Below, piece by piece: positions 6,911 through 58,134 of a DNA stretch of 64,000 nucleotides (positions within the stretch are counted from its first letter, which is position 1; every line of letters begins with the position of its first letter). Both the position numbers and the translations under genes were made by a program. The notes below the pieces were generated by a model. That model made no database searches and had not been told where the DNA came from. It saw only the letters and a list, made by a program, of their open reading frames with translations. The stretch spans positions 3,883 through 67,882 of the forward strand of contig CAIXBR010000123.1 in assembly GCA_903917735.1 (NCBI GenBank), read 5' to 3'. The stretch is from an uncultured Elusimicrobia bacterium. Its GTDB lineage: Bacteria; Elusimicrobiota; Elusimicrobia; Elusimicrobiales; UBA9959.

Positions 6911-7166
6911 CGCCTGTTTTATCTATAATAACAAAACGCGGGCGTTTTTATGGATTTTGCGCGGTCCCCCCAGCGGCCGGCTGACCGGGCGTGTTTGCGC
7001 AGGGTTGTTGGTTTGTCAGTCGTCGGCCGGGGCGGGTTCTATATCTTAAATATAAGTCCGCGCGCAGGTCTAACCGGCATTCTTCGTCCGGCGGACCGCA
7101 GATTTGGGCTGTTTTGAGCGCGGGCTTGAATGTCGGGAATTCAGCCGGCAGGCCCAAGTGGGTTAA
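6911..7166 (-). mobile_element. IS91-family 3'-end relic, copy A (short form, diverged)
   Basis: Minus strand encodes GLPAEFPTFKPALKTAQICGPPDEEC. CTATAATAAC block at 6923-6932. Ends at GGGTTAA (7166). Confidence 0.65.
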
Positions 7167-24907: not shown

Positions 24908-25196
24908 CAGAAAACACAAAGCTAATTATCGACTGTTTTTCCAGAGAGCCGCACCTTTTTCTTCTCCTGAAAGTTGCTAAAACTGCACCCTACCGCTATA
25001 ATAACAAAAAGCGTGGCTTTTCTTTGAAATTTTACTGAGTTCCCCGCGCCCGGCAGTGGCCGGGCGGGTTCTATTGCTTCGTATAAGTCGCCTTTCGGGT
25101 CCCGCTGGCAGTCTTCGTCTGGTGGACCGCAGGTTTGCGGCGCTTCAGGGGCAGGTTTAAACTTCGGGGAATCAGCGGGAGCCCCAGGTGGGTTAA
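24908..25196 (-). mobile_element. IS91-family 3'-end relic, copy B (short form)
   Basis: Minus strand encodes LTHLGLPADSPKFKPAPEAPQTCGPPDEDCQRDPKGDLYEAIEPA. TTGCTA-17-TATAAT at 24974-25002. Ends at GGGTTAA (25196). Confidence 0.8.
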
Positions 25197-25264
25197 ACAA
25201 GTATTGTATCATAGCGATAGAGGTATGTTTTTTGTAGATCCTTTTAGACGATCAGAAGTTTAAG

Positions 25265-25948
25265 ATGAGGTGGGAACCAACGATAAGTGCCCTTATGTTT
25301 ACTATAGATTTTCGGATCAGAGTCGGGTTTATGATCGTCGCCATGGTCTGGAATGTGGGGGCATTGGCGGCGGCGCAGCCGCAGGATGACGATCCTGTCA
25401 TCGAACTGCAAAAGACCCTGGAAGAGCAGGGAAAGCCTTATCAGGCGATAAACAATCTTAATCCTTTTAGTGATGACTACGGCAAGACAGATCCGCTTAC
25501 CCATACAAACTCATCAGGCGCCGTGGTCGTTTCATCCCAGTCGGCCAAGCAATTGGCGCAATTACAAAAGCTATTGTCCACCCCGGTCGTGCATGGCTAC
25601 TTGAGTCTGTTTTCTAAACCGGTTTTATCAAGCGGCATAAACAAGGTTATCAAACGTCCTAACCGCAAGATCCTTTTATATTCGGAAATAGGCTTACTGC
25701 TCTGCATGATCGTTTTTCGGGCTTGGCGACAATCCAAGGCGAAGCATTGGTACCGCAAGCTGTGGATAACTTTTTATTGCCTGGTTTTGGGCATGGGTCT
25801 TGGCGTGTTTGTGGTTCCGGCCGTTGTCATGGGGCGAAGTTATTTTGGTACGCTAAAGGAAATCGCGCAAAGCCTGCTGCCTTCGCATCATCGATATATT
25901 TTTAAAATTCCGGCCTTTGGAAACAATAAAGGACTCGGGGGAAGATAG
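25265..25948 (+). CDS. Hypothetical membrane/exported protein
   Basis: 227 aa with an N-terminal hydrophobic segment plus two C-terminal TM helices. No recognisable motif. Confidence 0.5.
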   Translation: MRWEPTISALMFTIDFRIRVGFMIVAMVWNVGALAAAQPQDDDPVIELQKTLEEQGKPYQAINNLNPFSDDYGKTDPLTHTNSSGAVVVSSQSAKQLAQLQKLLSTPVVHGYLSLFSKPVLSSGINKVIKRPNRKILLYSEIGLLLCMIVFRAWRQSKAKHWYRKLWITFYCLVLGMGLGVFVVPAVVMGRSYFGTLKEIAQSLLPSHHRYIFKIPAFGNNKGLGGR

Positions 25949-26038
25949 GCGGGAATACTTCAAGCACCCGCGCCAGACAGGCGGCCCAGGAATTAGCCTT
26001 CTTGTTCTGATGGTCTAGCAGGCGTTCCATGATTTATC
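25925..26038 (-). pseudogene. IS91-family transposase fragment
   Basis: Minus strand reads ..DHQNKKANSWAACLARVLEVFPPIFP. It matches KKKANSWAACLARVF.EIFPLICP of copy I. Confidence 0.6.
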
Positions 26039-26084
26039 AAGGCTATGCTAGTGCCGGAACAAGGCCTATGGCCATCAGACGACC
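26039..26084 (+). repeat. 46-nt hairpin mini-repeat, copy m1 (diverged)
   Basis: AAGGCTATGCTAGTGCCGGAACAAGGCCTATGGCCATCAGACGACC aligned to copies m4/m5. Confidence 0.6.
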
Positions 26085-26189
26085 ATGCCTGCGCTGCTGC
26101 CTCCATAGGTTGGAGCGCTCTCCTGAAAATAGGTTAGAATATAATAGATATTTATCGGGGGCTCTTTAGCATGGAAAACATTTAAGCGC

Positions 26190-33195: not shown

Positions 33196-33420
33196 CTGTT
33201 GCCCTATTTAGACCAAAAAACGATACAGGGTGCGCATACGGCCGCGCCATGTAAAAATGATACAAAAAGCCGCGGACATCCACTAGTGCCCGTACGGTAA
33301 CTCGCATTTTTATATCCTTTTTTGATATACCCCTAACGTTACAATACCAAAAGTCACGACGCTTCCGTAAAATTTAAAAAGCCATTCGTGTAAAGGGTGG
33401 GCTTTTTAATCGGGGGCGTC

Positions 33421-33523
33421 GGTAGGAAACATAAAGCTAATTAATGCCTGCTTTTCCGGAGAGCCATACCTTTTTTTCGCCTGAAAACGTGTGCAGCCGA
33501 AACCGTTTTTTGGCATAATAGAG
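33421..33523 (-). mobile_element. IS91-end relic, copy F (outer ~100 bp only)
   Basis: GGTAGGAAACATAAAGCTAATTAATGCCTGCTTTTCCGGAGAG.. aligns with the outer ends of copies D, E and I. It ends at the CATAAT box. Confidence 0.65.
33491..33519 (+). promoter_or_regulatory. Promoter-like motif within copy F facing the STAS gene
   Basis: GTGCAG-17 nt-CATAAT, 36 nt upstream of the ATG at 33555, with a GAAAGGGGG Shine-Dalgarno between. Positionally homologous to the TTGCTA-17-TATAAT of other copies. Confidence 0.4.
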
Positions 33524-34800: not shown

Positions 34801-34808
34801 GCTTAAAT

Positions 34809-35080
34809 CTGCAGGAAACATAAGTGAGGCTATCGCCTGATTTTCCGGAGAATCTCCCCTTTTCCTTCGCTGAATTTTGCCGGGTTCCCCCTCGTCCGGC
34901 GGTTTGCCGGGCATGCGTATCCAGCTGGCATTGTTCATCGGGCGGGCCGCAGTTTTGCAGTGCTACAGGGGCAGGTTTGGACTATGGAAAATCGGCGGGC
35001 AACCCCAGGCAGGTTAAGAGCCGCATTAGCTCTTTATCATTGAGAATAACAGCCACCGGCTTTATTTCTCTTTTGCATTT
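34809..35080 (-). mobile_element. IS91-family 3'-end relic, copy C (long form, internally deleted)
   Basis: Outer end CTGCAGGAAACATAAG. Minus strand encodes KCKREIKPVAVILNDKEL.. Lacks the TATAAT block and part of the tail. Confidence 0.65.
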
Positions 35081-35889: not shown

Positions 35890-35958
35890 AACCTCCGCGC
35901 GGCTTCAGTCCTGGAAAGTCAGATTCTTCTATCCCCCAAAAGTCATATTCCGGACTAT

Positions 35959-36085
35959 CTGTAGGAAAGATAAAGCTAATTATCGCCTCTTTTTCCGGAG
36001 AACCGCTCTTTTTGCTGCCTGAAAAATTTGCAAAAAGTCTTTCTTTACCGTTATAAAAAAGTCGGCGTGGTTTCTTTAAAAAAAG
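35959..36085 (-). mobile_element. IS91-end relic, copy D (outer ~125 bp only)
   Basis: CTGTAGGAAAGATAAAGCTAATTATCGCCTCTTTTTCCGGAGAACCGC..TTGCAA-17-TTATAA. Confidence 0.65.
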
Positions 36086-36522: not shown

Positions 36523-36786
36523 AGCCTCATATTCAGCCGGAGCAGATTCGGTTGATCGGAAGGACTGCCGCTTTATTGTCCTGTAATAGCGTCGTAAACT
36601 TCCCTGTTAACAAATACCATTGCGGCGAATGGATATCTTGTCAGTTTCGGTGCGGCATCTTCGGCATAGGCCGCAGAACCGTCCAGGATGAACATATCCT
36701 GGTAGCCCTGCCCGTCGCTGAGAGGCTTGACCTTAAAACCGGCTAATGCCAGCTCCCGGACTGCACATAAGTGTCCAGGCCTTCAT

Positions 36787-37194
36787 CTGTAGGAAATATA
36801 AGAGCGGTTATTGCCTGTTATTTTCTTTTTTTTCGGAGAACCGCCCCTTTTTCTTCGCCTGAAATTTGTCGAAAACTTCCCTTACCGCTATAATAACAAA
36901 AAGCGGGGCTTTTCTTTGAAATTTTGCCGAGTCCCCCCGCGCCCGGCGGTTGCCGGGCGTATCGGGCGGTTAGTGGTTGGGTCAGTCGTCAGCCGGGGCG
37001 GGGTCTATTGCTTCGTATAAGTCGCCTTTGGGGTCCGGCTGGCTGTCTTCGTCTGGCGGGCCGCAGGTTTGCGACGCTTTTGCGTCAGGCTTTAACTTCG
37101 GGAAATCAGCGGGCAGGCCCAGGTGGGTTAAAAGCCGCACAAGTTCTTTATCATTGAGAATAATAGCGGCCGGCTTCATTTCCAGTTTACATTT
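36787..37194 (-). mobile_element. IS91-family 3'-end relic, copy E (long form, best preserved)
   Basis: Minus strand encodes KCKLEMKPAAIILNDKELVRLLTHLGLPADFPKLKPDAKASQTCGPPDEDSQPDPKGDLYEAIDPAPADD then stop, then the hairpin GCCCGGC-AACC-GCCGGGC, an AT-rich block, and the outer end ..CCTACAG. Confidence 0.85.
36866..36894 (+). promoter_or_regulatory. Conserved sigma70-like motif inside the relic end (reads antisense to the transposase relic)
   Basis: TTGTCG-17 nt-TATAAT. The same spacing is found in copy B (24974-25002, TTGCTA), copy I (49252-49280, TTGCTA), copy D (TTGCAA/TTATAA), and copy H on the opposite strand (48071-48099). Confidence 0.45.
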
Positions 37195-37196
37195 GA

Positions 37197-37850
37197 TTAT
37201 GGAACCTGTGGGGGCTCGTGACTAGCAGCTGATGGCAAGATTTTGGGTGTTGTATTCTTATCAACCTGCTCCCCTATCCCGGGATGGTCTTTTTTCAACT
37301 GCGCCATTTCGGCTTTATTGGCGTCCCGCAGTGCTTTGAGAGATGCGCTTTGGCCGGCTTTCCTGGCTTTCATGGCCCTGCGTATTTCCGACTGAGGCTT
37401 CGACTTCAGACTTTCCCTGAGCACCGCTATTTCCTCTGCCTGACTGTTTTTTAATTCGGTGATAGCAGCTCTGTGCTTTTTCCTGAGTTCATAAACGGTG
37501 CTTATTTTCTCCTGCCGGGCCGGCTCCTGCTTAACCGGGGTTCCGGACAACTCAGGCGGGAGCAAAGCACCGGCCGGCTCAGACTTAATCGGAGCTCCTG
37601 CCGGCTCGGACTTGAGGAGGGTTCCGTTCGGCTCTGACTTGACCGGGGCTCCGGCCAGTTCGGGTTTGAGCAGCGCTCCGGACGGCTCAGACTTAAGCGA
37701 GGTTCCGGCAGGCTCGGATTTGAGCGGGGTTCCGGGCTGATCGGACTGTACCGGGGTGGTGGATATTGCAGGCCTGCTCTCCTGGGTGTTTTGCGCGCAG
37801 GAAGGCGCAGCGAACCAGACCGCTGTCATTACCGCAAATATCGTTTTCAC
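37197..37850 (-). CDS. Secreted protein with 9-aa tandem repeats and a basic helical C-terminal half
   Basis: Signal peptide MKTIFAVMTAVWFAAPSCA, eight LKSEPAG(A/T)x-type units, then an ELKNSQAEEIAVLRESLK.. helical region. Confidence 0.65.
   Translation of the reverse strand: MKTIFAVMTAVWFAAPSCAQNTQESRPAISTTPVQSDQPGTPLKSEPAGTSLKSEPSGALLKPELAGAPVKSEPNGTLLKSEPAGAPIKSEPAGALLPPELSGTPVKQEPARQEKISTVYELRKKHRAAITELKNSQAEEIAVLRESLKSKPQSEIRRAMKARKAGQSASLKALRDANKAEMAQLKKDHPGIGEQVDKNTTPKILPSAASHEPPQVP
37533..37748 (-). repeat. 27-nt in-frame tandem repeat (about 8 units)
   Basis: Repeated GGCTC(A/G)GACTT(A/G)A..GG..C(C/T)(G/C)C units encoding (L/V)KSEP(A/S/N)G(A/T)(L/P/S). Confidence 0.7.
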
Positions 37851-38044: not shown

Positions 38045-38317
38045 ATGAATGCGATATTTTTTATATCTCTTCTGGCGCTCGCGCTCAGCGGATGTTTTGT
38101 GACGGGCAAGCCCGGAGGCGGGATGGAAATTATCCCGATCCTGCCGGCGGTCGTAGAAGTGGATATGGATTCCCATTATGAATACAACGGGTATCACTAC
38201 TACTATGACCATGACCGCTGGTACTACTCGAATTCAATGGGGGGCTCCCGGAGGGAACTGCCGAGAAACCGATGGCCCAGAGAGGTCCGGCACGGGAACG
38301 GGAATCCTCATCGGTAA
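38045..38317 (+). CDS. Small Tyr/His-rich lipoprotein, hypothetical
   Basis: Lipobox LALSGC, then HYEYNGYHYYYDHDRWYY. Confidence 0.55.
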   Translation: MNAIFFISLLALALSGCFVTGKPGGGMEIIPILPAVVEVDMDSHYEYNGYHYYYDHDRWYYSNSMGGSRRELPRNRWPREVRHGNGNPHR

Positions 38318-38321
38318 AAAG

Positions 38322-38626
38322 CCGCCTTTATAATAACTAGCCTATGGCCATGCCGTAACAAGAGCTATGTGCATCAGACAGCCAAAAATCGCGGTTTTTC
38401 TTTAAAATTTTGCTGAGTTCCCCCGCGCCCGGCGGTAGCCGGGCGTATCGGGCGGTTAGTGGTTGGGTCAGTCGTCAGCCGGGGCGGGGTCTATTGCTTC
38501 GTATAAGTCGCCTTTCGGGTCCGGCTGGCAGTCTTCGTCCGGCGGGCCGCAGGTGTGTTCATATAACGTCGCTTGCGGGGCCGGTTTAAACTTCGGGAAT
38601 TCAGCAGGCAAGCCTAAGTGAGTTAA
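38322..38626 (-). mobile_element. IS91-family 3'-end relic, copy G (short form, carries mini-repeat m2)
   Basis: Minus strand encodes LTHLGLPAEFPKFKPAPQATLYEHTCGPPDEDCQPDPKGDLYEAIDPAPADD then stop. Hairpin GCCCGGC-TACC-GCCGGGC. Ends at GAGTTAA (38626). Confidence 0.8.
38338..38383 (+). repeat. 46-nt hairpin mini-repeat, copy m2
   Basis: TAGCCTATGGCCATGCCGTAACAAGAGCTATGTGCATCAGACAGCC. It interrupts TATAATAAC | AAAAATCGCGG, which is contiguous in copies B, E and I. Confidence 0.65.
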
Positions 38627-38740: not shown

Positions 38741-39375
38741 AGCACTAATATTCATTTGGCCGGATTTTCACGGGAGAAGGTCAATATTTATCCGTAACCG
38801 TATACAAACGTTTACGCCCTCTAATAACTTTTGCCGAAGGTTTTTAACGCCGTTGAACAGCTTTTCCGTGAAGGGAAGGCCGTTCGGCGCCCTGGGCGCG
38901 GGCCAGCGGTTGACGCTGGCGTTCAAGTTCGGGAAAGAACTTGAAGGTTCCGGCCGGAAGCCCGCAGACTCCCCTGTTACCCGCGGGAAGCGCGCGGAGC
39001 ATGAAAAGGCCGCGCCGCTCCCCTTGCGAAAGAGAGCGGAAAAACGCTGCTCGAACAGCAGCTGGAAGAAAAGTTCCTGACGTGGTAAAAGTTCGCCTTT
39101 CCTGGCGGCCGTTCCGACCCCCATTAAGCAACAATCATCTGAGAATGTAAGAGTTCCTCCGCGGAACTCCTTCTGTACTCAACTTTCCCTTGAAAATTAC
39201 CGGTTTATCACGTATAACATCCGATAATATTGTTTGGTAAATGTTTGATGATTTGATGGTTTTTCCCTGATTTTTATCCGACACATTACAAACGGTAAAA
39301 AAATAAGGGTGTTCTTGTGGCCTCGGGAATTAACAGAGGTTGATTTGCGGCGTTTTACGGCGCGGCATCCGGCCT

Positions 39376-42300
39376 ATGAAAAGGATAATATTGTTTTTAG
39401 CGGCAACGGTACTCCTGTCGGCGGCGGTTTCCGCCGAACCGGAGTTGTTCCCGTTCAAGAACGGCATCCGGCCGCTCACCCCCGATCAGGAAGCGTACTT
39501 GAAGGACAGGGTGGTCCGGATAAATTCCATCAAGCCCAACAGACTGGCTCTGGCCAGGAGCGCCGCCGCGTCCGCGCCCCAGGCCGGACTGCCGCCCTCC
39601 GTCAGCAACTGGCAATACCTTCCCAAGGTCGGCAACCAGGGCGGCCAGGGCAGTTGCGCAGCGTGGTCCACCTGTTACTATTACAAAACCTACCAGGAAG
39701 CCAAGGAGCATGGCTGGAATAACCCCGATTACGGCGTGAATCCGGACCATGTCATGAGTCCGGCGTTCTGTTACAATCTTGTCAATGGTGGGGAGGACGG
39801 CGGGAGCATGCCCTCCTGGATAATGCAGATGATAGCGGATCACGGCGACGCTACCTGGCAGGATATGCCGTACGACCAGGGGGACTATCTCTCATGGCCG
39901 TCCCAGGCGGCATGGAAGAACGCCCTCCTCTACCGGGCGCAGAGCGCGGCGACCATAGATATTACCACCGATGCGGGAATAACGGCGCTTAAACAGCAAC
40001 TGGCCAACGGGGATATAGCCGTCATCGCGTTCAACGTCACGGCCAGCTTCGACCATTATCCCAGCGACTATCCCGGGGTCAACAGCCAGGTGCTTTATGA
40101 TAATTCCGGCGGCTCGCGCGGCGGGCATGCTGTGACGGTGATGGGCTATGACGACACCAAATCCTATGTGGGCGGTAACGGCGTTACCCAGCACGGCGCG
40201 TTCAAGATAGTAAATTCCTGGGGCAATACATGGGGAATAACCGACCCCGACATCGGGACCAAGGGATTTGTGTGGATGGCTTACGCATACCTGAAGAGCA
40301 AGACCGGCTACGGGCAGGCCTGGACTATGGTCGACAGGACGGGATATCAGCCTACCGTCTACGGAACCTTCGGCCTGGAGCATCCCAGCCGCGGGGACCT
40401 TAACGTTTATTTCCTTGGCGGCAGCAATAACGACAGTCCGGATTGGTCTTTTAACGCGCTGCCCAGCATGGGCGGGACGCATGCAGTTGCGCAGAAGGTC
40501 ACCGTGGACCTGTCATTGTACAGTCCCGATCTTAATGGTAAATTCTGGCTTAAGGTCAGCGATTCCCTGTCCAATTCCGCCACGGGACAGATAACATACA
40601 TGGGCGTTCAGCAGGCCGGTGGTCAGGAAGAAGTCTCGGCGGACACCCCGAAAAATACGCAGAACGGCAGCTATGTCTATGTACAGCTTTCCAACGGCGG
40701 AGGGGTAGGGTATACCGCGCTCGATCCTTCGTTCACCCAGGTTAACATTACAAGCCTCACGGTGACCTGGGACCTGATACCCGGCGCTAATTATACGGTA
40801 GTGCTGAGTTCGGACAGTTATTACACCGGCATTCTGTCTTCCGGGACCCAGGCCCAGAATTCCATCAACTTCCCCGGCCTTTCGGCAGGCGCAAGATATT
40901 ATTTCCAGGTCAAGATATCGACCGAATCGGACATGGGTTATTTTTACAACCGTTCTTCGGCCAGGACCCTGGTGGGGACATGGTCGGCCGCGACTGCGAT
41001 GTCAACGCCGCGGGGTTATCATGCCGCCATACTGCTGCCGGACGGCCGGGTGCTTGTTGCCGGCGGCTCCAGCGGCTCCTATCTCTCCTCCGCGGAAGTG
41101 TACGATCCGGGCGCAGGCACCTGGTCAAGCGCGGGTTCGATGGCGGCCGCGCGGACCTTTCCCGGCGCCGTGCTGCTGTCCGACGGCCGGGTGCTTGTCT
41201 CCGGAGGTTCCGGCTCCGGCGGTTTTCTTTCTTCCTCCGAACTCTACGACCCGGAGACCAATGCCTGGTCCGGCGCGGGGTCCATGTCCTCTCCGCGCGG
41301 GCGCCACACCGCCACGTTGCTACCTAACGGTAAGGTGCTTGTGACCGGCGGTTATTATTATGATAGTGAATGGCATTATCTTTCTTCCGCCGAGTTCTAC
41401 GACCCGAAAACCAATGTCTGGTCGAGCGCGGGCTCCATGTTTTCTGAGCGGGTATTTCATACCGCCACGCTTTTGCCTAACGGCAAAGTGCTGGTGGCAG
41501 GCGGGGATAACGGCTATCTCCCTCTCGCTTCGGCCGAGCTCTACGATCCCGTCACCAACAGCTGGTCAGCCGCTGCCGCGCCGCTATATGCGCGATATGC
41601 CCACACCGCCACGCTGCTGCCCGGCGGCAAAGTTCTGGTCGCGGGCGGGGGGGGAGGCGGATCCACCTCAGAACTCTACGATTCGAATACGAACAGCTGG
41701 TCGAGCGGGGGAGACATGCTGTCCTCGGGCCGTCAGTCTTCCACTTCGGCATTGCTGCCCGACGGCAAGGTTCTTGTGGCCGGCGGCCAGGGAGGCGGTT
41801 CCTCGACCGAGCTCTACGATCCGAAGACTAACGGCTGGTCGAGCGCTGGTTCGATGCTGTCTTCGGAGCGGGCCTACGGCACAGCCTCGCTGCTGCCCGA
41901 CGGCAGGGTTCTTGTGGCGGGCGGATACAGCAGCGGCTACCTTTCCTCCACCGAACTCTTCTCCCCGGCCGATCTGGTTTTGACAAAGTTGGCCCCGGTC
42001 TTTGCACAGGTGGGGGTTTCAAACCTTTCTGTTACATGGACGCCCGTTCAGGGCGCTAATTACACGGCTGTGCTTTCTTCGGACGCGAGTTTCATGAACC
42101 TTGCATCTTCAGCGACCCAGAGCGGAAATTCGGCCGGCTTTACGGGGCTTTCGCCCGCTACGCGGTATTTCTTCGAGGTCAAGCTTTCCACCGAGACCGA
42201 ATGGGCCTATGCGGGGAACACGATCTCCACCGCGACGCCTTCCCCCGCGGTCCTGTCCTGGACCGGAGAAACTAATTATGCCGCCGACGGACTGGACCCC

Positions 42301-45300
42301 GAAACCGGAACATCCACGATGACATTCACATACCGGGTTAAATTTACCGACGCCAACGGCAAAGCCCCGGCGGCCGGTTATCCGAAGCTCCATATACGGA
42401 AAGGCGGCGATGAAATAGTCGGCAGCCCGTTCACGATGGATCACATCAGCGGCGGTCCCTTAGCCGGCGCGATATATGAGTATTCGCGAAAGTTAAGCGC
42501 GGGAACGGATTATTCCTGCTATTTCGAGGCTTATGATTCCGATAATAACAGGGCCGCGGGGCCGCCCGTCTCGGCGGTGGACTCCCCGGACGTCTATGAC
42601 GGCGTCTGGGCGGTTGCGAATCATATGTCGTTGGCGCGAAGCGCCCATGCCGCAGTGCTGCTGCCCGGGGGCCGCGTGCTTATGGCCGGCGGTTCCAACG
42701 GATCTTACATTTCCTCCGCGGAGCTCTATGACCCGAACACTAACGCTTGGTCAAGCGCGGGTTCCATGTCATCAGCGCGCACCTATCACAGCGCCACGCT
42801 GCTGTCAGGCGGCAAAGTGCTGGTAGTAGGAGGGGCAGGAGGCGGCTCTTCTTCCGAGCTCTACGACCCGGACGCGAACAGCTGGTCGGGCACGGGCTCT
42901 ATGGCGTCGGCGCGGTATTATCACACCGCCACGATGCTGCCCAGCGGAAAGGTGCTTGTGGCGGGCGGCTCAGGCAGCGGCTGTCTTTCCTCGGCCGAGC
43001 TCTACGATCCCAATACGAACACCTGGTCAAGCGCGGGTTCCATGTCGGCGGCCAGGGAGTTCCATGCCGCCGTGCTGCTGTCTAACGGCAAGGTACTGGT
43101 GACAGGGGGGTATAACGGCAGTTCATATCTTTCCTCGGCCGACCTCTACGACCCTAATACGAACAGTTGGTCGAGCGCGGGTCCGATGTCTTATTCGCGC
43201 GGGTCGCACACCGCTACCTTGCTTCCCGGCGGGAAAGTGCTTATCGCGGGCGGAGGCTCCACGGCCGAGCTTTACGATCCGAACACCAATACCTGGTCGA
43301 GTGCGGGCTCTATGTACGTGACGCGCTACGACCACACGGCCACGCTGTTGCCCGACGGCAGGGTGCTCGTCGCCGGCGGTTCGGGCAGCGGTTATCTTTC
43401 CTCGACCGAGCTTTACGACCCGAACACGAATACCTGGTCAAACGCTGGGGCCATGTCGGCGGCACGATATTATCACACCGCCACCCTTCTGCCGTCCGGC
43501 AAGGCGCTGGTTGCCGGCGGTTATTATTATGAAAACAACACGTGGCATTATCTCTCATCCGCCGAACTCTACACTCCTGTCGGTTTAATGTTGACAAAGG
43601 TGACCCCGTCCCTTACGCAGGTGGGATTTTCGAGCTTTACCGTGACATGGACGCCGGTCGCCGGCGCGAATTACACGGCGGTCCTTTCCACAGACGCGAA
43701 TTTCATAAGCCTTGATTCTTCTGTGACCCAAGGCGGGAATTCAGCGACCTTTACGGGTCTCGCGCCGCTGACGCGGTATTTCTTTGAGGTCAAACTCTCC
43801 ACTGAAGCGGAATGGGCTTACTTCGGAAACAGAATATCCGCCGCGACGCCTTCTCCCGCGACCGCGCTGCATCCGCAATTCTTCCAGGTTTACGCGGCGA
43901 GCGCGACCGTGACCTGGGATGCTGTTCCCGGTTCCGCTTATACGGTGGTCCTGGGTTCCGATAGTTTCTACACGAATATCGTGTCGTCCGCGGGCCAGGC
44001 CGCGAACACAAAGACCTTTACGGGACTCAGTGCGGGAACAAGCTGGTATTTTGAGGTCAAGCTTTCTTCCGAAACCAATGCGGCTTACGCCTTCAATAGG
44101 ATATCCACGGCCACTCTTGCGGTCATGCCCTATCTCTCCGCCGGGCCGGTGTTTACGCATCTCTGCGCCAGCAGCATGACCGTGAACTGGTCTTCCGGAA
44201 CGGCCGCAATCGGTTTTGATCCTGCCGGCACGCTTTACACAGTGGAGCTCTCTACGGACGCCGGCTTCCAACCGGTGCTGGCTTCATCGCAAACTTACGG
44301 CCTGAGCGGAGTATTTGAGGATCTATCCCCTAACACATCCTATTATGCCCGTGTGCAGGCAATGAACGGCGGCGGTACGGGTACGGATTTCACCGCATTG
44401 GGCGCAACAGCCACTCTGGCGGTCATGCCCGGCCGGCCGGCGGGCGATGTGTACACGAAAATCTTCGCCGGCAGTATGACGGTCAACTGGTCTTCGGGGA
44501 CTGCTGCGACCGGCTACGATCCGGCCGGCACGCGTTACAAAGTGGAATTTTCAACATCAGCCGGATTCATCCCGATCTGCGGTTCCTCGCTGACATACGC
44601 TTTGAGCGCGGGCCTTACCGGTCTCGAGCCGGATACCATCTACTATTCAAGGATCGCGGCGGTAAACCGCTCAGGTGAGCCCTCTCTCTGGCTCGTCGCT
44701 CCGTCCACGGCCACCCTTCCCAACCCGCCGGCGGACGATAGTTCCCCGGTGAGGGACATGTCGGCCGGCAGTTTTGAATATCGATGGTCGGCCAACGACA
44801 ATCCTTCCGGAACGCTCTACGTGGCCCAGCTCTCGACCGCCCCGGGTTTTTCCGGGAGCGGCGATCGGCCGACCGCGACTGCCGGGACTTCCGCCAATTT
44901 CGCGGGTTTGACCGGCAATACGGCTTATTATGCGAGGGCGTATGCCATAGGCCGCGCAGGGCACATAACTCAGTTCAATACCGTAGTTTCCACTGTCACG
45001 CCGCCCCAGGCCCCCGCCGCCGGGGTTTTCAGCGTAGCCGGCTCGTCCGCGCTAACCGCCAACTGGGGGTTGGGCCTTAACAACGCCGCCGGGTTGACCT
45101 ATCTGGCACAGCTTTCCGTTTCGAATGTTTTTGCGGACGTCCTCGCGTCATCCGCTACGGCGGGAGTCTCGGCGGTATTCGGGCTTGGCGGACAGGGAGC
45201 CCCGCTCACTCCCGACACTTCCTACTACGTGCGCGTACTGGCGCTCGGTTATAGCGGTGCAGGGAACTTTTCGGACCTCGGGGGGATAGCAACGCTGGCT

Positions 45301-46794
45301 AACGCGCCGTCCCGGATGGAGGCTGTCGCCATAACCTCAGTGTCGGTGAGCCTGGACTGGTTGCCCAACGGCAATCCCGAGCCCGGCGCGGCATATGAAC
45401 TATGGCGGGATGTTGCCCCGGGCTTTACCGCGCCGCTGAAGACCAGCGTCTCCGGAAGCGGGTGTCTTGCCGGCGGTTTGTCCCCGCTGACGACCTATTA
45501 TTTCAAGGTTCGCGCGGTCAACAAGGCGGGGGTATATACGGATTTCGACTCGGATCTGTCCGTTCTGACTCACCCTCCCGCGCCGGGAGCAATCGTAATG
45601 AACGGAACGGCGGCGGGAGTGTCGTCCGTCAGATGGGCCTGGAACGACGCCGGAGCTGGAACGGCATACAGGGTCGTGAGCGCCGCGGGAGCGGACCTGT
45701 CGGGAGAGCTTGAGGCGGGGAGTACGTTCTGGGTCGAACCGCAGCTCTCCACTAATACCGCTTACTCCCGCATGGTGGTGGCGTCCAATCTTTCCGGGAT
45801 CTCCACTTCCGCTGCCGTTACCCGTTTTACGCTGGCTGCGGCGCCGGCCGGTTCCGGATTCCTCGAGGTCTGGCACAGCTCGGCCTCCATGAAATGGTCT
45901 GAGAACGGCGATCCGCCCGGAACCTCTTTCGAGGCGCAATACTGGACAATGGGCGGTTCAACGTCTTCAGTTGTGGCCGGTTCTACCTGTGCCGTGCTGA
46001 CCGGCCTGGCGCAGGAGACCACGGTCTATGCGCGGGTCAGGGCTCTTAACGGAGACGGCATTCCTTCCGCGTACGACGGGACGGCTTCCACCTTTATTCC
46101 GAACACGATGGTCGTTATCCAGCCCGGCAGCGGCTATACGCTTGTTTACGATCAAATATCATTGAATATCGCTCCCGACACTTTTAATGAGACCGTGAAT
46201 CTCCTTGTGAAACGGCCCGCCCAGGCACCGCCTGACAGCGGCGGACTTGCGGGTTTTTCGGCAAGTGTCCTGGTGGACATCTCAGCGCTGAACCCGTTAA
46301 CGCAAAAGCTCCAACCGTTAAAGGAAGTGATAGTCGCGGCGGATTACCGGAACATGGACCTGGAGGGAGCCGATGAAGGCACCTTGGTCATGGCGACTTA
46401 TAATGAAAGCCGCGCCGTCTGGGTCCCGCTTCCCTCGGTAAGGGACAGGAACGCTAAAACGGTGACGGCGAGGACCGGTCATTTCTCCCTGTTCCAGCTC
46501 ATGCATTCGTTCGCCCCGGAGAGCATTTCGGGGATAACGGTCGGGCCGAACCCTCTGAGGCCGGTAAGGAACCCGGGGCAAGCGTTCACGTTCAGGCATC
46601 TGCCTTCCGGCGCGAGCGTTAAAATTTACACTTGTCTCGGAGAACTGCTGTACGAAACGGCCGCTGACACGTCCGGCATGGCCGTCTGGGACGGAAAAAA
46701 CAAGGCGGGCAGGCTGGTCGGGAGCGATGTTTATCTGGCGCTGTTAAAATGGAAAGGCGAGAGAAAAGTCCTTAAACTGGTCATGGAAAAATGA
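39376..46794 (+). CDS. Giant secreted protein: C1 (papain-like) peptidase + two Kelch propeller blocks + many Fn3-like domains + T9SS-type C-terminal domain
   Basis: Start set at MKRIILFLAATVLLSAAVSAE (signal peptide). C1 triad context: QGGQGSCAAWS, GGHAVTVMGYDD, IVNSWGNTWG. More than 20 Kelch units (LLPDGRVLVAGG..ELYDP.TN.WS.AGSM). CTD GPNPLRP..VKIYTCLGELL..DVYLALL..LKLVMEK. Confidence 0.85.
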   Translation: MKRIILFLAATVLLSAAVSAEPELFPFKNGIRPLTPDQEAYLKDRVVRINSIKPNRLALARSAAASAPQAGLPPSVSNWQYLPKVGNQGGQGSCAAWSTCYYYKTYQEAKEHGWNNPDYGVNPDHVMSPAFCYNLVNGGEDGGSMPSWIMQMIADHGDATWQDMPYDQGDYLSWPSQAAWKNALLYRAQSAATIDITTDAGITALKQQLANGDIAVIAFNVTASFDHYPSDYPGVNSQVLYDNSGGSRGGHAVTVMGYDDTKSYVGGNGVTQHGAFKIVNSWGNTWGITDPDIGTKGFVWMAYAYLKSKTGYGQAWTMVDRTGYQPTVYGTFGLEHPSRGDLNVYFLGGSNNDSPDWSFNALPSMGGTHAVAQKVTVDLSLYSPDLNGKFWLKVSDSLSNSATGQITYMGVQQAGGQEEVSADTPKNTQNGSYVYVQLSNGGGVGYTALDPSFTQVNITSLTVTWDLIPGANYTVVLSSDSYYTGILSSGTQAQNSINFPGLSAGARYYFQVKISTESDMGYFYNRSSARTLVGTWSAATAMSTPRGYHAAILLPDGRVLVAGGSSGSYLSSAEVYDPGAGTWSSAGSMAAARTFPGAVLLSDGRVLVSGGSGSGGFLSSSELYDPETNAWSGAGSMSSPRGRHTATLLPNGKVLVTGGYYYDSEWHYLSSAEFYDPKTNVWSSAGSMFSERVFHTATLLPNGKVLVAGGDNGYLPLASAELYDPVTNSWSAAAAPLYARYAHTATLLPGGKVLVAGGGGGGSTSELYDSNTNSWSSGGDMLSSGRQSSTSALLPDGKVLVAGGQGGGSSTELYDPKTNGWSSAGSMLSSERAYGTASLLPDGRVLVAGGYSSGYLSSTELFSPADLVLTKLAPVFAQVGVSNLSVTWTPVQGANYTAVLSSDASFMNLASSATQSGNSAGFTGLSPATRYFFEVKLSTETEWAYAGNTISTATPSPAVLSWTGETNYAADGLDPETGTSTMTFTYRVKFTDANGKAPAAGYPKLHIRKGGDEIVGSPFTMDHISGGPLAGAIYEYSRKLSAGTDYSCYFEAYDSDNNRAAGPPVSAVDSPDVYDGVWAVANHMSLARSAHAAVLLPGGRVLMAGGSNGSYISSAELYDPNTNAWSSAGSMSSARTYHSATLLSGGKVLVVGGAGGGSSSELYDPDANSWSGTGSMASARYYHTATMLPSGKVLVAGGSGSGCLSSAELYDPNTNTWSSAGSMSAAREFHAAVLLSNGKVLVTGGYNGSSYLSSADLYDPNTNSWSSAGPMSYSRGSHTATLLPGGKVLIAGGGSTAELYDPNTNTWSSAGSMYVTRYDHTATLLPDGRVLVAGGSGSGYLSSTELYDPNTNTWSNAGAMSAARYYHTATLLPSGKALVAGGYYYENNTWHYLSSAELYTPVGLMLTKVTPSLTQVGFSSFTVTWTPVAGANYTAVLSTDANFISLDSSVTQGGNSATFTGLAPLTRYFFEVKLSTEAEWAYFGNRISAATPSPATALHPQFFQVYAASATVTWDAVPGSAYTVVLGSDSFYTNIVSSAGQAANTKTFTGLSAGTSWYFEVKLSSETNAAYAFNRISTATLAVMPYLSAGPVFTHLCASSMTVNWSSGTAAIGFDPAGTLYTVELSTDAGFQPVLASSQTYGLSGVFEDLSPNTSYYARVQAMNGGGTGTDFTALGATATLAVMPGRPAGDVYTKIFAGSMTVNWSSGTAATGYDPAGTRYKVEFSTSAGFIPICGSSLTYALSAGLTGLEPDTIYYSRIAAVNRSGEPSLWLVAPSTATLPNPPADDSSPVRDMSAGSFEYRWSANDNPSGTLYVAQLSTAPGFSGSGDRPTATAGTSANFAGLTGNTAYYARAYAIGRAGHITQFNTVVSTVTPPQAPAAGVFSVAGSSALTANWGLGLNNAAGLTYLAQLSVSNVFADVLASSATAGVSAVFGLGGQGAPLTPDTSYYVRVLALGYSGAGNFSDLGGIATLANAPSRMEAVAITSVSVSLDWLPNGNPEPGAAYELWRDVAPGFTAPLKTSVSGSGCLAGGLSPLTTYYFKVRAVNKAGVYTDFDSDLSVLTHPPAPGAIVMNGTAAGVSSVRWAWNDAGAGTAYRVVSAAGADLSGELEAGSTFWVEPQLSTNTAYSRMVVASNLSGISTSAAVTRFTLAAAPAGSGFLEVWHSSASMKWSENGDPPGTSFEAQYWTMGGSTSSVVAGSTCAVLTGLAQETTVYARVRALNGDGIPSAYDGTASTFIPNTMVVIQPGSGYTLVYDQISLNIAPDTFNETVNLLVKRPAQAPPDSGGLAGFSASVLVDISALNPLTQKLQPLKEVIVAADYRNMDLEGADEGTLVMATYNESRAVWVPLPSVRDRNAKTVTARTGHFSLFQLMHSFAPESISGITVGPNPLRPVRNPGQAFTFRHLPSGASVKIYTCLGELLYETAADTSGMAVWDGKNKAGRLVGSDVYLALLKWKGERKVLKLVMEK
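40975..42245 (+). repeat. Intragenic segmental duplication, copy 1 (Kelch block + Fn3)
   Basis: Ends ..LTKLAPVFAQVGVSNLSVTWTPVQGANYTAVLSSDASF..RYFFEVKLSTETEWAY..TPSPA. Colinear with 42600-43860. Confidence 0.7.
42600..43860 (+). repeat. Intragenic segmental duplication, copy 2 (Kelch block + Fn3)
   Basis: Ends ..LTKVTPSLTQVGFSSFTVTWTPVAGANYTAVLSTDANF..RYFFEVKLSTEAEWAY..TPSPA. Confidence 0.7.
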
Positions 46795-47833: not shown

Positions 47834-48137
47834 TTAACCCACCTGGGCCTACCCGCTGATTTCCCGAAGTTCAAGCCTGCCGCAAAAGCGTCGCAAACCT
47901 GCGGCCTGTCAGACGAAGACTGCCAGCCGGACCCGAAAGGCGACTTATACGAAGCAATAGACCCCGCCCCGGCTGACGACTGACCCAACCACTAACCGCC
48001 CGATACGCCCGGCAACCGCCGGGCGCGGGGGGACTCGGCAAAATCTCAAAGAAAAGCCCTGCTTTTTGTTATTATAGCGGTAGGGCGCGGTTTTAGCAGA
48101 GGATAACAGGCGATAATCGCACTTATGCTGCCTACAG
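47834..48137 (+). mobile_element. IS91-family 3'-end relic, copy H (short form, opposite orientation)
   Basis: Plus strand encodes LTHLGLPADFPKFKPAAKASQTCGLSDEDCQPDPKGDLYEAIDPAPADD then stop, hairpin, and outer end CCTACAG at 48131-48137. Starts 5 nt after the PorV-like stop. Confidence 0.85.
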
Positions 48138-48146
48138 ATCGGATTC

Positions 48147-48985: not shown

Positions 48986-49536
48986 AAAAGGATACCCCTG
49001 TATTTGTGGCGCCTTTCCGCTAGTACGCTACAACAATGGCTATCGGCATAACAGCTAGCGGCACCTGTATTCCTGAACTTCAGATATTCAATTGTAGCGT
49101 CACAACCCGGATTTGTCAAGGGCCGTAGGACCCCGTAGGACGATTGTCACGAAAAGGTAAAGCGTCAAAATATGTAGGCAACATAAAGACGGTTATCGCC
49201 TGTTATCCTCTGTTTTTCCCGGAGAACCGCACCTTTTTCTTCGCTTGAAAGTTGCTAAAACCGCGCCCTACCGCTATAATAACAAAAAGTGGGGCTTTTC
49301 TTTGAAATTTTACCGAGTCCCCCCCGCGCCCGGCGGTTGCCGGGCGTGTCGGGCGGTTAGTGGTTGGGTCAGTCGTCAGCCGGGGCGGGGTCTATTGCTT
49401 CGTATAAGTTGCTTTTTGGGTCCGGCTGGCAGTCTTCGTCGGGCGGGCCGCAGGTTTGCGGCGCTTTTGCGGCAGGCTTGAACTTCGGGAAATCAGCGGG
49501 CAGCCCCAGATGGGTTAAGAGACGCACAAGTTCCTT

Positions 49537-49582
49537 GGCCGTTTGACGAGCATAGCTCTTGATACGGCACTGGCATAGCCTT
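49537..49582 (-). repeat. 46-nt hairpin mini-repeat, copy m4
   Basis: AAGGCTATGCCAGTGCCGTATCAAGAGCTATGCTCGTCAAACGGCC, inserted between ILND and KELVRLL codons that are contiguous in copies C and E. Confidence 0.75.
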
Positions 49583-49633
49583 GTCATTGAGAATAACAGC
49601 CACCGGCTTCATTTCTAGTTTGCATTTAGGGCA

Positions 49634-49653
49634 TTATGCCGATATCGGCATAA
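49634..49653. repeat. Perfect 20-bp palindrome inside the transposase relic
   Basis: TTATGCCGATATCGGCATAA, immediately upstream (sense direction) of the point where long-form copies C and E begin. Confidence 0.8.
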
Positions 49654-49677
49654 GGGGCAGATAAGCGGGAAGATCTC

Positions 49678-49723
49678 GGCCGTTTGATGGCCATAGGCCT
49701 TGATACGGCACTGGCATAGCCTT
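49678..49723 (-). repeat. 46-nt hairpin mini-repeat, copy m5
   Basis: AAGGCTATGCCAGTGCCGTATCAAGGCCTATGGCCATCAAACGGCC, splitting ..CLARVF | EIFPLICPLC. Confidence 0.75.
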
Positions 49724-50270
49724 GAAAACCCGGGCCAGACAGGCGGCCCAGGAGTTGGCCTTCTTTTTGAGCTTATCAACTTTTTCTTGCACGATAATGC
49801 GGTCTGTTTCCTTTGCCGCTTTCGCGGCAAGCAGCGGCCGCAGCGGGGACCTGGGCGCCAGCGCGCCGTAATAGTGAATTATATTTTTATTTTTTTTGGG
49901 GGGGCGGCATAAGCAGGCCCCAGCGCCGCATGAACTCGATGGGCGTCATGGTCAGCAGTTCCGATTTCCCCTCCCTTGTATCAGTGCGGTAGATGACCAG
50001 ATTGCTTTTGACCGCATAGATAAGCCGCGCCAGCGAAATGGCGGGGCGGGGACCGGTGTAAAAACCAGTTCACACCTGCCCAGGGAGCCTGCTTTCATAT
50101 CAAAGAGCCCGTCCGAGACCACCGCGTGCACATGGATGTGCAGGTTCAGCGAGCCGCCGAACCGCTGTATAAAATGCAGTTGGGCGGGCGCCCCGCCGCC
50201 GTTCTTCCGCAGGAAGCGGTCTATTTCACGCGTGAATATTTTACAGCGTAGTGTCGCTCATTAGAGGGTC

Positions 50271-50673
50271 ATTTTTCAAGAAAAAAAGGTCCCTTCCACA
50301 GTTTTGTGGCATATTTTTAGCTAAAATTCGCTACGACATCCCTCCGTTCAAGGCTTTTACGCGGCCGGGTTCTCTTTTATTTGACGTCGGACGAAGCCGC
50401 GCCAGTCACTCATCAGGATCAAGGCGCAGGCGTAACAGTTGCCTTTGCCCCTGCCTTCCATGGGAGGCCCAGAAAACCTTTGGTTCACTGCCGTATCCAT
50501 TTAACGGCGGATTTCTCCGCCTTCAGGTTTTTGGCTTCGGATTTTCATCCGGCCAACGCTCCGCTGGCTTACGGCCGTGGCGTCCTCGCCCAAAAAGAAG
50601 GGCGAAGGAAGCTGCTAATCGGGACGTGTGGTTGTTCCAACACTACGCATAGCTCACTTCCTTCGCCAAATCT
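50271..50673 (-). ncRNA. Candidate IS110/IS1111 bridge (seek) RNA region
   Basis: 403 nt without an ORF, downstream of the transposase stop. Contains an 11-bp stem GGCGAAGGAAG...CTTCCTTCGCC and a GGCGGAGAAATCCGCC hairpin. The call rests on position and structure only. Confidence 0.3.
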
Positions 50674-51693
50674 TTACGCGAAAGCCAGCGCCTCATCGAA
50701 CACTTCCTGGTCTTTCAGCACGTGGTAGCAGGCGCGCGCCAGTTTATGCGCCACCGCCTTGGCCGCCACTATCTTGTTCGTCTTGGTCATCTTGCGTTGA
50801 TAGAAATTCCTGATACGCTCGTTATACCGTATGGCAAAATGTGCAGCTTCAATAAACGCCCAAGCCAGGTATTTATTCCCGTTCTTCCGATTGCCTTCGC
50901 CTTTCTTTTTGCCGTTGCTCCAGCGGGAACTGCCCACACAGCTCGCATAGGAAGCGAAGTGCCCGACTTTCTTAAAGCGCTTCATGTCGCCGGCTTCGTA
51001 CATTATCGTCATGCCGAGGACCTCCCAGATCCCGTCGATCGTTAGGATCTTCCTGAATTCCGGTTTTAACCTGGCCTGCTTAAGAACCACTTTTTCAAGC
51101 GCAACAACCTGTTCGTCCAGGCAACGCATAACTGATAGATTGCTTTTTACTGCCAGCTCAAGCACGCTGTTCCCGCGGCAGTACTGGCCGATTGTCTCGT
51201 CATCCAGCTTCCGGACACCGTCCGTGTTTATTTTTTTGCCGCTGTTCCGGCTCACCAGGCCTTGTATGCTCAGTATCTGCGTGGTGCGGCAGCGCACCAA
51301 CTGGGCGCGCTTGCGCAGCAGGTCCCGCACGGCCCGGTCTTCCTTCGGCTGTATGTAGCCTGTCGGCAATACGCCCAGCCGCAACAGGTGCGCCAAGTGC
51401 CGGGCATCGTGTTCGTCCCCGGTGTATTTAAGCCCTTCATAAACTTTCACCGCCGCAGTGTTCACAAGCTTTACATCGTAGCCCTCGTCCATCAGCCCAT
51501 CGACCAGCCAGTACCAGTTATACGTCGATTCCACAGCTATCGCCTGGATCCTTTTCTTGTACGGCGCCAGTCCGGCCAATATGGTCTTCAGATCATTGGG
51601 GTAGCGTTCTTCAAGCACAACCCAGTCCTTTTCGTTCAGTATTACCAGCACGCTGTTATTGGAATGCAGGTCTATTGCCGAGTATAATTTCAT
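50674..51693 (-). CDS. IS110-family (DEDD) transposase
   Basis: Start set at MKLYSAIDLHSNN after AAGGAGGGG. Blocks AIDLH, AVESTYNWYWL, and C-terminal FASYASCVGS..GNKYLAWAFIEAAHFAIR are typical of the family. Confidence 0.85.
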   Translation of the reverse strand: MKLYSAIDLHSNNSVLVILNEKDWVVLEERYPNDLKTILAGLAPYKKRIQAIAVESTYNWYWLVDGLMDEGYDVKLVNTAAVKVYEGLKYTGDEHDARHLAHLLRLGVLPTGYIQPKEDRAVRDLLRKRAQLVRCRTTQILSIQGLVSRNSGKKINTDGVRKLDDETIGQYCRGNSVLELAVKSNLSVMRCLDEQVVALEKVVLKQARLKPEFRKILTIDGIWEVLGMTIMYEAGDMKRFKKVGHFASYASCVGSSRWSNGKKKGEGNRKNGNKYLAWAFIEAAHFAIRYNERIRNFYQRKMTKTNKIVAAKAVAHKLARACYHVLKDQEVFDEALAFA

Positions 51694-51783
51694 ACAAGTC
51701 CCCTCCTTAGCTGTTTTGTAATTGCTTCTAGACAAAGCAATGTTACAAACTGCGGGAGGGGACCCTCTATATGATTATCGGGC

Positions 51784-51818
51784 AAAAAAAGCCCCGGGGT
51801 TATCCCCGGGGTTTTTTT
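51784..51818. terminator. Terminator after the thiolase gene
   Basis: AAAAAAAGCCCCGGGG-TTAT-CCCCGGGGTTTTTTT. Confidence 0.8.
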
Positions 51819-58077: not shown

Positions 58078-58134
58078 TGGGTGCCGTACCAAGCGCTATG
58101 CTCATCAAACGGCCGATACCAAGCGCCGTCAGCC
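58078..58134 (+). repeat. Hairpin mini-repeat, copy m6 (partial, with extra half-unit)
   Basis: GTGCCGTACCAAGCGCTATGCTCATCAAACGGCC plus GATACCAAGCGCCGTCAGCC, in an ordinary intergenic spacer. Confidence 0.5.

Follow-up and report, generated by a model that had tools for sequence, protein, structure and literature searches.

The window analysed here, a stretch of 64,000 nt of contig CAIXBR010000123.1 from an uncultured Elusimicrobia bacterium, carries at least nine copies or fragments of one repeat family, which is an IS91-type rolling-circle element as judged from its predicted HUH/Y2 transposase. Truncated copies of this family, in the window and in at least 15 related genomes, share the origin-type (ori) end located downstream of the transposase gene, and their inner ends are piled up at two single nucleotides within the gene. 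The explanation we put forward, with evenly balanced confidence, is that transposition is recurrently terminated early at internal sites devoid of hairpins, giving rise to mini-elements made of the ori end, and that a perfect 20-nt palindrome found beside one of these sites in the longest window copy (copy I) would be a separate insertion of the recombinase-in-trio (RIT) type.

Inner ends of the truncated copies

The distribution of inner ends was determined in a scan of one genome per species with the C-terminal 49 residues of the transposase as the query in a narrowed alignment, which gave 55 loci in ~20 metagenome-assembled genomes, most of them labelled Elusimicrobia. Boundaries were mapped by tblastn against full-length proteins and each was then read at the nucleotide level. 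With the window copies included, ~42 truncated copies have a readable inner end, i.e. one not lost at a contig end. Twenty-two of them (18 loci and four window relics; 11 genomes) start with ^YTAACCC (the caret marks the cut), all similarity upstream of this point being lost at once, and constitute the short form of ~350 nt. Eight (L013, L017, L040, L041, L047, L051 and window relics C and E; six genomes) start with ^AA(A/C)TG(C/T)AA and constitute the long form of ~410 nt. Eight full-length copies were also found, and abundance falls with length from the 22 short through the eight long forms to the fewer longer ones. The patterns used for retrieval lie downstream of both sites and therefore cannot have created the pile-ups. 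An accumulation of ends at two single nucleotides of a ~1.3-kb gene is far beyond chance.

The original prediction for this region had held that the shared breakpoints do not come from random decay. This has been borne out, the same nucleotides being used in many genomes and in separate element lineages; random decay is excluded. The claim that relics are cut at only two positions is slightly too strong: it holds for six window relics, but two older ones (~33418-33500 and ~35957-36080) retain the non-coding outer end only, and ~12 of the 42 copies overall end elsewhere, three of them near the KKKA codons, where they form a weaker cluster. A third hot spot at the YYGAL codons was considered and rejected, as the boundaries there are heterogeneous.

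Within the window the short forms A, B, G and H start with ^TTAAC(C/T)C at 7166, 25196, 38626 and 47834, and the long forms C and E with ^AAATG(C/T)AAA at 35080 and 37194 (transposase sense; Table 1), in agreement with the prediction, and the flanks beyond these boundaries are mutually unrelated and are for the most part host-gene ends. Every copy includes the region that follows the transposase stop codon, and this region terminates with ...CTTATGTTTCCTACAGAT^. Copy I does continue past the long-form start, upstream to ~50250. A left-part fragment of the transposase gene at 26 kb, which encodes the codons just upstream (KKANSWAACLARV.EVFPPI), had been expected to break in the same short interval; it ends ...ATCTTCCCCC^ at the exact long-form nucleotide, which is also the insertion site of the palindrome. 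The upstream sequence of L015, which resembles ...CTGCCCC^, was considered as another such left-part fragment and rejected because it belongs to a host macro-domain gene.

The relic products are mostly intergenic. When flanks were joined and an open frame across the junction was sought, no convincing case of a relic interrupting a gene was obtained. The repeat was also considered as a known RNA and rejected, since searches of the window against Rfam (gathering thresholds) and for tRNA genes gave only tRNA-Val.

When copy I is translated after repair of its frameshifts, the product matches Pfam Y2_Tnp (PF04986) with E = 8.6e-14; the HUH motif HIHVH is present and a contiguous C-terminus is visible in the protein alignment. 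The reconstructed protein has 65 homologues, mostly from Elusimicrobia, many of which are intact (375-433 amino acids) and combine Zn_Tnp_IS91 with Y2_Tnp. Precomputed domain annotation places Zn_Tnp_IS91 (PF14319) on the intact homologues P0001-P0003, P0007 and P0014, and this N-terminal domain is gone from every window copy because the copies are truncated. The Y2_Tnp match and the domain composition of the homologues together assign the family to the IS91-type rolling-circle elements.

Recurrence of the two cuts

When nearest neighbours were compared over the shared ~350 nt, the copies grouped by genome and lineage and not by form, in at least five genomes. The long form L017 and the short form L023 from one genome are 99.4% identical, the long form L041 is 95% identical to the full-length copy L039 on the same contig, the short forms L006, L012 and L025 group with the longer copy L009 of their genome, and the long form L047 groups with a longer copy on its own contig. 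Since the grouping follows genome and lineage, the same two cuts seem to have been made repeatedly, which we rate above a concerted evolution of old mini-element lineages. Synteny with the window copies was sought for L005, L007 and L042 from the closest genome, and none was found.

The rival account treats short and long forms alike as non-autonomous mini-elements that propagate themselves, similar to miniature inverted-repeat transposable elements (MITEs), and that each arose by chance deletion once or a few times, were mobilised in trans and underwent gene conversion with local full-length copies. It would explain the high copy numbers, the mostly intergenic location and the near-identity of short forms within one genome (90-97% for L006, L012 and L025), and one internal-deletion derivative with both ends does exist: in L049 (~3985-4140) the upstream hairpin (ACCCGACATCCTTTGTCGGGT) directly adjoins the final ~30 codons, followed by the ori end, which makes this copy a genuine miniature element with two ends. 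However, no terIS hairpin is left in the short and long forms, although correct termination after mobilisation in trans would require one, they cluster by genome and lineage as described above, and identical boundaries in lineages ~70% identical would demand very old origins together with pervasive gene conversion. We regard this account as unlikely.

Ends of the element and early termination

In IS91 the bottom strand, antisense to the transposase gene, has been found to form the functional circular intermediate, the ori target and the ter cleavage site are marked by tetranucleotides, terIS is a subterminal palindrome, and termination is error-prone and fails in 1-50% of events (PMC13181058). 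In the element studied here a hairpin, CCCGACAG-N4-CTGTCGGG, is located upstream of the start codon in L007, L018, L030, L011, L189 and L190, and that of L030 folds with z = -3.5. The two ends differ and lack terminal inverted repeats, the upstream hairpin end being unrelated to the ...CCTTATGTTTCCTACA end. The shared end downstream of the gene, ...CCTTATGTTTCCTACA-GAT^, resembles oriIS of IS91-type elements; after ...CTACA the flank shows a bias, with GAT in 12 copies and AGT, ATG or ATT in others, the border between element and target not being fixable there without empty sites. What truncated copies retain is the ori end, the hairpin end being lost. Full-length copies showed no direct repeats at their termini.

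If the element transposes as IS91 does, the strand antisense to the transposase gene would be nicked at the ori-type end and displaced toward the ter end, and displacement that stops early would leave pieces anchored in ori. Stopping would be strongly favoured at two internal sites, the first permissive ones met from ori. Retention of the ori end and an abundance that falls with length are what one would expect from displacement interrupted at such sites. We directly observed the ori end common to all copies, inner ends that are exact to the nucleotide, their recurrence and the order of abundance (short > long > longer); as their cause we infer premature termination or cleavage by the transposase. 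On the displaced strand the short form ends with 5'-...CCAGGTGGGTTAR^ (i.e. CCAGGTGG-GTTAA^) and the long form with 5'-...CCAG(G/T)TTGCATTT(G)^ (i.e. CCAG(G/T)TTG-CATTT(G)^); across the cuts the antisense strand reads ...CCAGGTGGGTTAA^GAGCC at the short-form site and ...CCAGGTTGCATTT^GGGGCA at the long-form site. CCAG(G)T stands at an equal distance from the cut in both displaced-strand ends, an unexplained resemblance that we do not call a motif. The short-form start (AACCCAC) was also considered as a copy of the left end (AACCCGAC at the ter hairpin), and this was dropped because the similarity between L018 and L189 continues ~45 nt outward.

Several results count against early termination. 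No significant hairpin was detected at either internal site (z from -1.1 to +0.8 vs -3.5 for the true terIS hairpin), so that recognition, if the transposase does cut there, would rest on short sequence only, as with the tetranucleotides of IS91. No clear conserved target tetranucleotide was seen at the ori flank, and the ~45 nt shared by L018 and L189 upstream of the hairpin place the true left end of the full-length element elsewhere than at the hairpin. Exact-protein look-ups of two flanking genes gave same-species assemblies only, all of them carrying the relics; with no empty site, insertion of pre-truncated pieces and deletion in place are not distinguishable. Finally, simple premature termination would not lead one to expect the left-part fragment that breaks off at the long-form site.

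This fragment fits better with a model in which full-length copies were inserted and then shortened in place by site-specific breaks, with deletion of the upstream part and of adjacent host DNA. One fixed and one variable end are the signature of adjacent deletion. Moreover, around open reading frame (ORF) 25265-25948 the left-part fragment and short form B, 0.7 kb from each other, agree in order and orientation and look like one old copy in which alignment columns 429-449 have been replaced. Yet the relics abut seemingly intact host genes (a stop codon lies 1 nt from E and a gene end 6 nt from H), which is unlikely if host DNA was removed each time, and an upstream-part relic is found nearby in none of the other 29 cases. 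We consider in-place shortening improbable, and recurrent early termination remains the reading we prefer. As to the locus itself, short form B, ORF 25265-25948, the left-part fragment and one copy of a 46-nt repeat (A-seg, see below) are arranged over 24909-26085 as in one old copy, with matching order and orientation, and 63 nt of that copy between the two hot spots would be swapped for ~0.7 kb; the ORF encodes a predicted membrane protein of 227 amino acids, and the G+C content of the region is ~0.50 vs 0.57 elsewhere.

The palindrome in copy I

Direct reading bears out the perfect 20-bp palindrome predicted at 49634-49653. By itself such a palindrome is weak evidence and unremarkable, one with arms of at least 10 nt being present in 17 of 200 Markov-1 simulations of the window. 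In copy I the region reads ATCTGCCCC-TTATGCCGATATCGGCATAA-TGCCCTAAATGC: a 26-nt insertion, composed of the 20-mer and a second copy of TGCCC(C/T), falls in the transposase codons I-C-P^K-C and breaks the frame. The long-form cut lies 6 nt from the position of the palindrome.

The palindrome had been proposed to be a cryptic hairpin at which the HUH transposase nicks or terminates, thereby yielding the ~0.4-kb long form. Its 6-nt distance from the boundary, its perfect conservation in three diverged copies, and the use of hairpins by HUH enzymes and at the terIS of IS91 all favour this idea. The comparison with intact relatives, which had been suggested as a check, goes the other way: intact homologous proteins read ...SWAACLARVFEVFPLICPKCKLEMKPVAVILNDKELVRLLTHLGLP... 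without interruption, intact relatives have ...FPLICPKCKLEMKP..., and the eight full-length DNA copies read ...CTTATCTGCCCCAAATGCAA..., the palindrome being absent from all of them. It is a foreign, frame-breaking insertion with a 6-nt direct repeat. None of the eight long forms contains it, as their start lies 6 nt from its position, toward ori, and a terIS hairpin of the IS91 type would be included in the element. Long forms also arise from parents without the palindrome (full-length L039 giving L041), and the same 20-mer belongs to RIT elements of unrelated bacteria. We judge a nicking or termination role of the palindrome extremely unlikely. The match of relic E to the end of the palindrome amounts to CATAAT, which overlaps the TAA stop of ORF 37197-37850 and is at chance level.

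The palindrome is not unique to copy I: L010 and L011, from two other genomes, carry the same 20-mer with the same TGCCCC repeat in the same codons, but these copies are equally decayed. An inherited orthologous locus was rejected, since neither is syntenic with copy I. Across the ~240 surrounding nt, the identity of copy I is 90.7% with the palindrome-less L005, 84.8% with the full-length L018 and 72.6% with the palindrome-bearing L011, the 26-nt insert being identical in copy I and L011. At the divergence between copy I and L011 the probability that 26 nt remain identical by common descent is ~3 x 10^-4. Identity of the insert against a 72.6% background therefore points to independent, site-specific gain of the palindrome in at least two diverged element lineages.

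Relation of the 20-mer to RIT elements

An exact-match scan of metagenome contigs found the 20-mer in at least 120 stretches (L060-L179). Among the matches listed, CGGCATAAT-N8-CGGCATAAT repeats (CGGCATAA arms) flank one side in 93 of 121 occurrences, and where at least 1.5 kb of arm-side sequence is available (52 occurrences), tyrosine-recombinase homologues are present in 45. L078 has three overlapping Phage_integrase genes enclosed by two palindromes, and the same trio accompanies the 20-mer in L071, L081, L128 and L153. This layout is, by its predicted gene content, the RIT architecture, in which the 20-mer appears identical to the terminal palindrome (core) of the elements, and the arrangement TTATGCC-GATATC-GGCATAA would suit a tyrosine-recombinase core site. 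For RIT ends 34-bp inverted repeats and palindromic terminal repeats of 42-51 bp (the latter in PMC5737581) have been reported, and the mobility and target choice of the elements were stated to be untested (PMC3414803, PMC10214605, PMC5737581).

Outward of the RIT ends lie interrupted genes of mobile elements, encoding an ArdC-like zincin metallopeptidase and transposases of the IS256 and IS66 types, and on an annotated Agrobacterium plasmid a similar repeat has, within ~4 kb, an integrase gene whose sequence overlaps that of a DUF1738 (ArdC-type) gene. Such ends suggest a conserved core site combined with a preference for mobile-element genes. We also observed that the ArdC-like gene is interrupted at its H-E-x-x-H-W-T-G-H motif and that an IS5-type transposase and a tyrosine recombinase are interrupted at RIT ends as well; a His codon (CAY) is usually found 4-5 nt beyond the palindrome, and the 5-13 nt on each side are often mirror images (L060-L179).

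The window palindrome, identical to the core of the RIT terminal palindrome, stands alone, with neither recombinase genes nor CGGCATAA arm repeats near it. Most likely it represents a solo RIT-type site or a scar in an IS91-type gene, left by RIT-type recombination at a putative pseudo-site in the CPKC codons, where the native IS91-type sequence is CTTATCTGCCCCAAATGC; the native CTTATCTGCC resembles the RIT arm TTATGCCG. Three findings speak against this origin. No RIT genes are visible in the window, nor in the Elusimicrobia loci that were retrieved, and the palindrome can therefore be at most a solo site or scar and not an RIT element. Among the palindrome-bearing contigs listed none has an RIT inserted at an IS91-type CPxC site; three carry distant IS91-type genes nearby, in none of which the palindrome is at that site. 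Other solo copies of the 20-mer have no flanking 6-nt direct repeats.

Events at the CPKC codons

Three unrelated kinds of event fall within ~10 nt of the CPKC codons. The first is the long-form boundary (eight copies), together with the end of the left-part fragment in the window; the second is the RIT-type palindrome (three copies, with at least two probable independent gains); the third is a MITE of ~280 bp in L001 with 21-nt inverted repeats (CACAGCTGTCCGGAGAAAGTTTT) and a 9-bp target duplication, GCCCAAAAT. This MITE-like insertion (L001 6948-7225, also in L002 and L003) splits the IS91-type transposase gene at the CPK codons, and the called protein P0016 ends inside it.

The coincidence may partly reflect sequence preference, given the likeness of CTTATCTGCC to TTATGCCG, and is still notable after this has been allowed for. 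One might even suppose that the boundaries themselves stem from other mobile elements, RIT-type or MITEs, which split the gene at preferred targets, the halves being separated later by rearrangement. The three events at CPKC (the palindrome with its TGCCCC repeat in three genomes, the 280-bp MITE with GCCCAAAAT, the long-form boundary) would fit; however, no remnant of an inserted element is found at the boundary of any of the eight long or 22 short forms, and the short-form site is not known to harbour an inserted element, which makes this origin very unlikely. A more tentative extension of recurrent early termination, to which we give little credence, is that in this clade the transposase acts on the gene encoding it, cutting at two or three short, hairpin-less sites and thereby releasing ori-anchored mini-elements of fixed length with an outward promoter, and that the nicked CPKC stretch then admits unrelated mobile DNA, namely a RIT-type site (gained twice independently) and a MITE. 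If true, an internal fragile site of one transposon would be exploited by others.

Other features of the window

The features located in the window are collected in Table 1.

Table 1 Coordinates of the IS91-type copies and associated features in the window
Feature	Position	Strand	Remarks
Relic A, short form	6923..7166	-	Other lineage; nearest is full-length L007 of another genome
Relic B, short form	24909..25196	-	
Left-part transposase fragment (about KKANSWAACLARVLEVFPPI)	25937..26003	-	Ends ...ATCTTCCCCC^
Relic C, long form	34807..35080	-	~127-nt internal deletion in non-coding part
Relic E, long form, 410 nt	36785..37194	-	
Relic G, short form	38300..38626	-	46-nt A-seg at 38342-38385 interrupts non-coding part
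Relic H, short form, inverted	47834..48139	+	96% identical to long form E, 95% to copy I
Copy I, longest IS91-family relic	49170..50250	-	Transposase alignment columns ~170-502 and ~200 nt of non-coding ori-type end (...CCTACATAT^)
Sigma-70-like promoter match TTGCTA-N17-TATAAT	49252..49280	+	Conserved in relics; antisense to transposase gene, outward through truncated end
G+C-rich hairpin (C-GCCCGGC-GGTT-GCCGGGC-G)	49327..49346	.	Just downstream of transposase stop; conserved in relics; part of ori-side region
Copy I position matching short-form boundary	49518..49519	-	CTC^TTAACCC, codons L^LTHLGLP
46-nt A-seg insertion	49534..49579	-	After GACAAG (ILNDK^ELVR); small structured repeat, at least nine Elusimicrobia genomes
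Copy I position matching long-form boundary	49627..49628	-	CCT^AAATGCAAA, codons CP^KCK
Palindrome with flanking 6-nt direct repeat	49628..49659	-	Plus strand AGGGCA ... GGGGCA; transposase sense TGCCCC-palindrome-TGCCCT
Perfect 20-nt palindrome TTATGCCGATATCGGCATAA	49634..49653	.	10+10; TTATGCC-GATATC-GGCATAA; direct reading
Second 46-nt A-seg	49675..49720	-	After TTTTCAAG (ARVF^EIFP)
IS110-family transposase gene (DEDD_Tnp_IS110 + Transposase_20)	50674..51735	-	Abuts upstream truncation of copy I

Copy I is damaged by frameshifts, an internal deletion of ~60 codons, the two 46-nt insertions and the palindrome, and lacks its upstream (5') third, the missing side adjoining an IS110-family element. 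The latter spans 50251-51800, and the same arrangement beside copy I is seen in all same-species assemblies (L184-L186). The promoter match of copy I recurs at equivalent positions in relics A, B, E, G and H; the gene downstream of it is co-oriented in A (a PhoU_div/PHO4 operon at 7214) and B (ORF 25265) and convergent in E and H, so that the association is inconsistent.

The two 46-nt insertions in copy I (49534-49579 and 49675-49720), which the original prediction had not separated out, are copies of the A-seg repeat, with the consensus GCTATGCCAGTGCCGTATCAAG-GNNC-TAT-GNNC-ATCA(A/G)ACGGCCAAG. Further copies are located in the window at 26042-26085, 38342-38385 and 58081-58114 and in L024, L028, L030, L034, L035, L042, L049-L051, L053, L054, L056 and L058. 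Its hairpin shows compensatory changes (GAGC/GCTC, GGCC/GGCC, GCGC/GCGC, GGGC/GCCC), and it is preceded by (C)AAG or TAG and terminates with CCAAG or CCAAA. Some sites recur across genomes: PPPK^KNLVHYYG (L028, L030, L035), ILNDK^ELVR (the window and L051) and TATAATAAC^AAAAA (relic G of the window, L049, L056). A-seg may be a repetitive extragenic palindromic (REP)-like element or a tiny element that targets CTTG. L004 contains at 6440-6780, directly downstream of an IS91-type element, a fragment encoding ...LLRYVHMNPVKAGI..., which has features typical of transposases of the IS200-like or REP-associated (Y1) kind and could be a candidate for the mobiliser of small hairpin repeats in this clade.

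Two ORFs of the window are themselves repetitive. The annotation of L184 assigns a Peptidase_C1 domain and many Kelch/beta-propeller repeats to one of 2484 amino acids (39340-46794), which has diverged internal repeats of a ~140-nt period; ORF 37197-37850 contains a 27-nt tandem repeat (37521-37763) encoding (K/P)SEP(A/S)G(A/T)(L/P)(L/V).

Relation to known systems

The choice of the stop site is poorly understood in the IS91 family, to which the ISCR elements responsible for moving resistance genes also belong, and only read-through past the end has been studied. Pile-ups at two exact nucleotides without a hairpin provide defined candidate cleavage sequences. They also carry a warning for annotation, as a hairpin beside a breakpoint of an HUH element need not belong to that element. 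For RIT elements, one invariant 20-bp palindrome marks the ends across very different bacteria, beside interrupted ArdC-like, IS256-type, IS66-type and, here, IS91-type genes; a conserved core site with natural targets makes their mobility and target choice testable and may matter more widely.

The closest known systems are IS91, IS801 and IS1294, their one-ended transposition included, with which the element has in common the HUH/Y2 transposase, the N-terminal zinc-binding domain, two unlike ends, the hairpin near the end upstream of the gene and the shared end downstream of it. Error-prone termination is documented for IS91 and IS1294 (PMC13181058). The known errors of these elements consist of read-through past terIS and give longer products, whereas the products found here are mostly shorter and have two fixed, hairpin-less internal ends. 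The ori flank differs as well, being CTTG/GTTC in IS91 and CA-GAT, CA-AGT and similar in the present clade. The relics are thus a variation of known IS91-type behaviour, with short products of fixed end points in place of read-through.

ISCR elements, also of the IS91 family, have oriIS downstream of the gene and commonly leave ori-proximal remnants. Their truncated copies are commonly attributed to recombination with sequences of integrons or islands, and the end points vary, in contrast to the two exact nucleotides used here in many genomes. An outward promoter in the ori region has been described for ISCR1 (PMC6218425). Helitrons, which acquire new ends at cryptic termination signals, share with the present element the HUH/Y2-type transposase, and their termination needs a short terminal sequence and a hairpin. 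When the hairpin is missing, Helitrons use alternative short end signals. They differ in being eukaryotic, in having a transposase fused to a helicase and in another orientation logic.

REP elements mobilised by REP-associated tyrosine transposases (RAYTs, IS200/IS605-like) resemble A-seg in being short, with two small hairpins that show compensatory changes, and in their many copies, mostly in non-coding DNA; in A-seg, unlike in that system, no RAYT gene was linked to the repeat here, and its ends also fit a 4-bp target duplication or the CTTG logic of IS91-type elements. As for RIT elements, the window 20-mer is identical to the palindrome that abuts the RIT arms and three tandem tyrosine-recombinase genes, but it is bare of recombinase genes and arms and flanked by a 6-nt direct repeat. 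The palindrome is thus a known kind of sequence, the terminal palindrome of RIT elements, in a setting unreported before.

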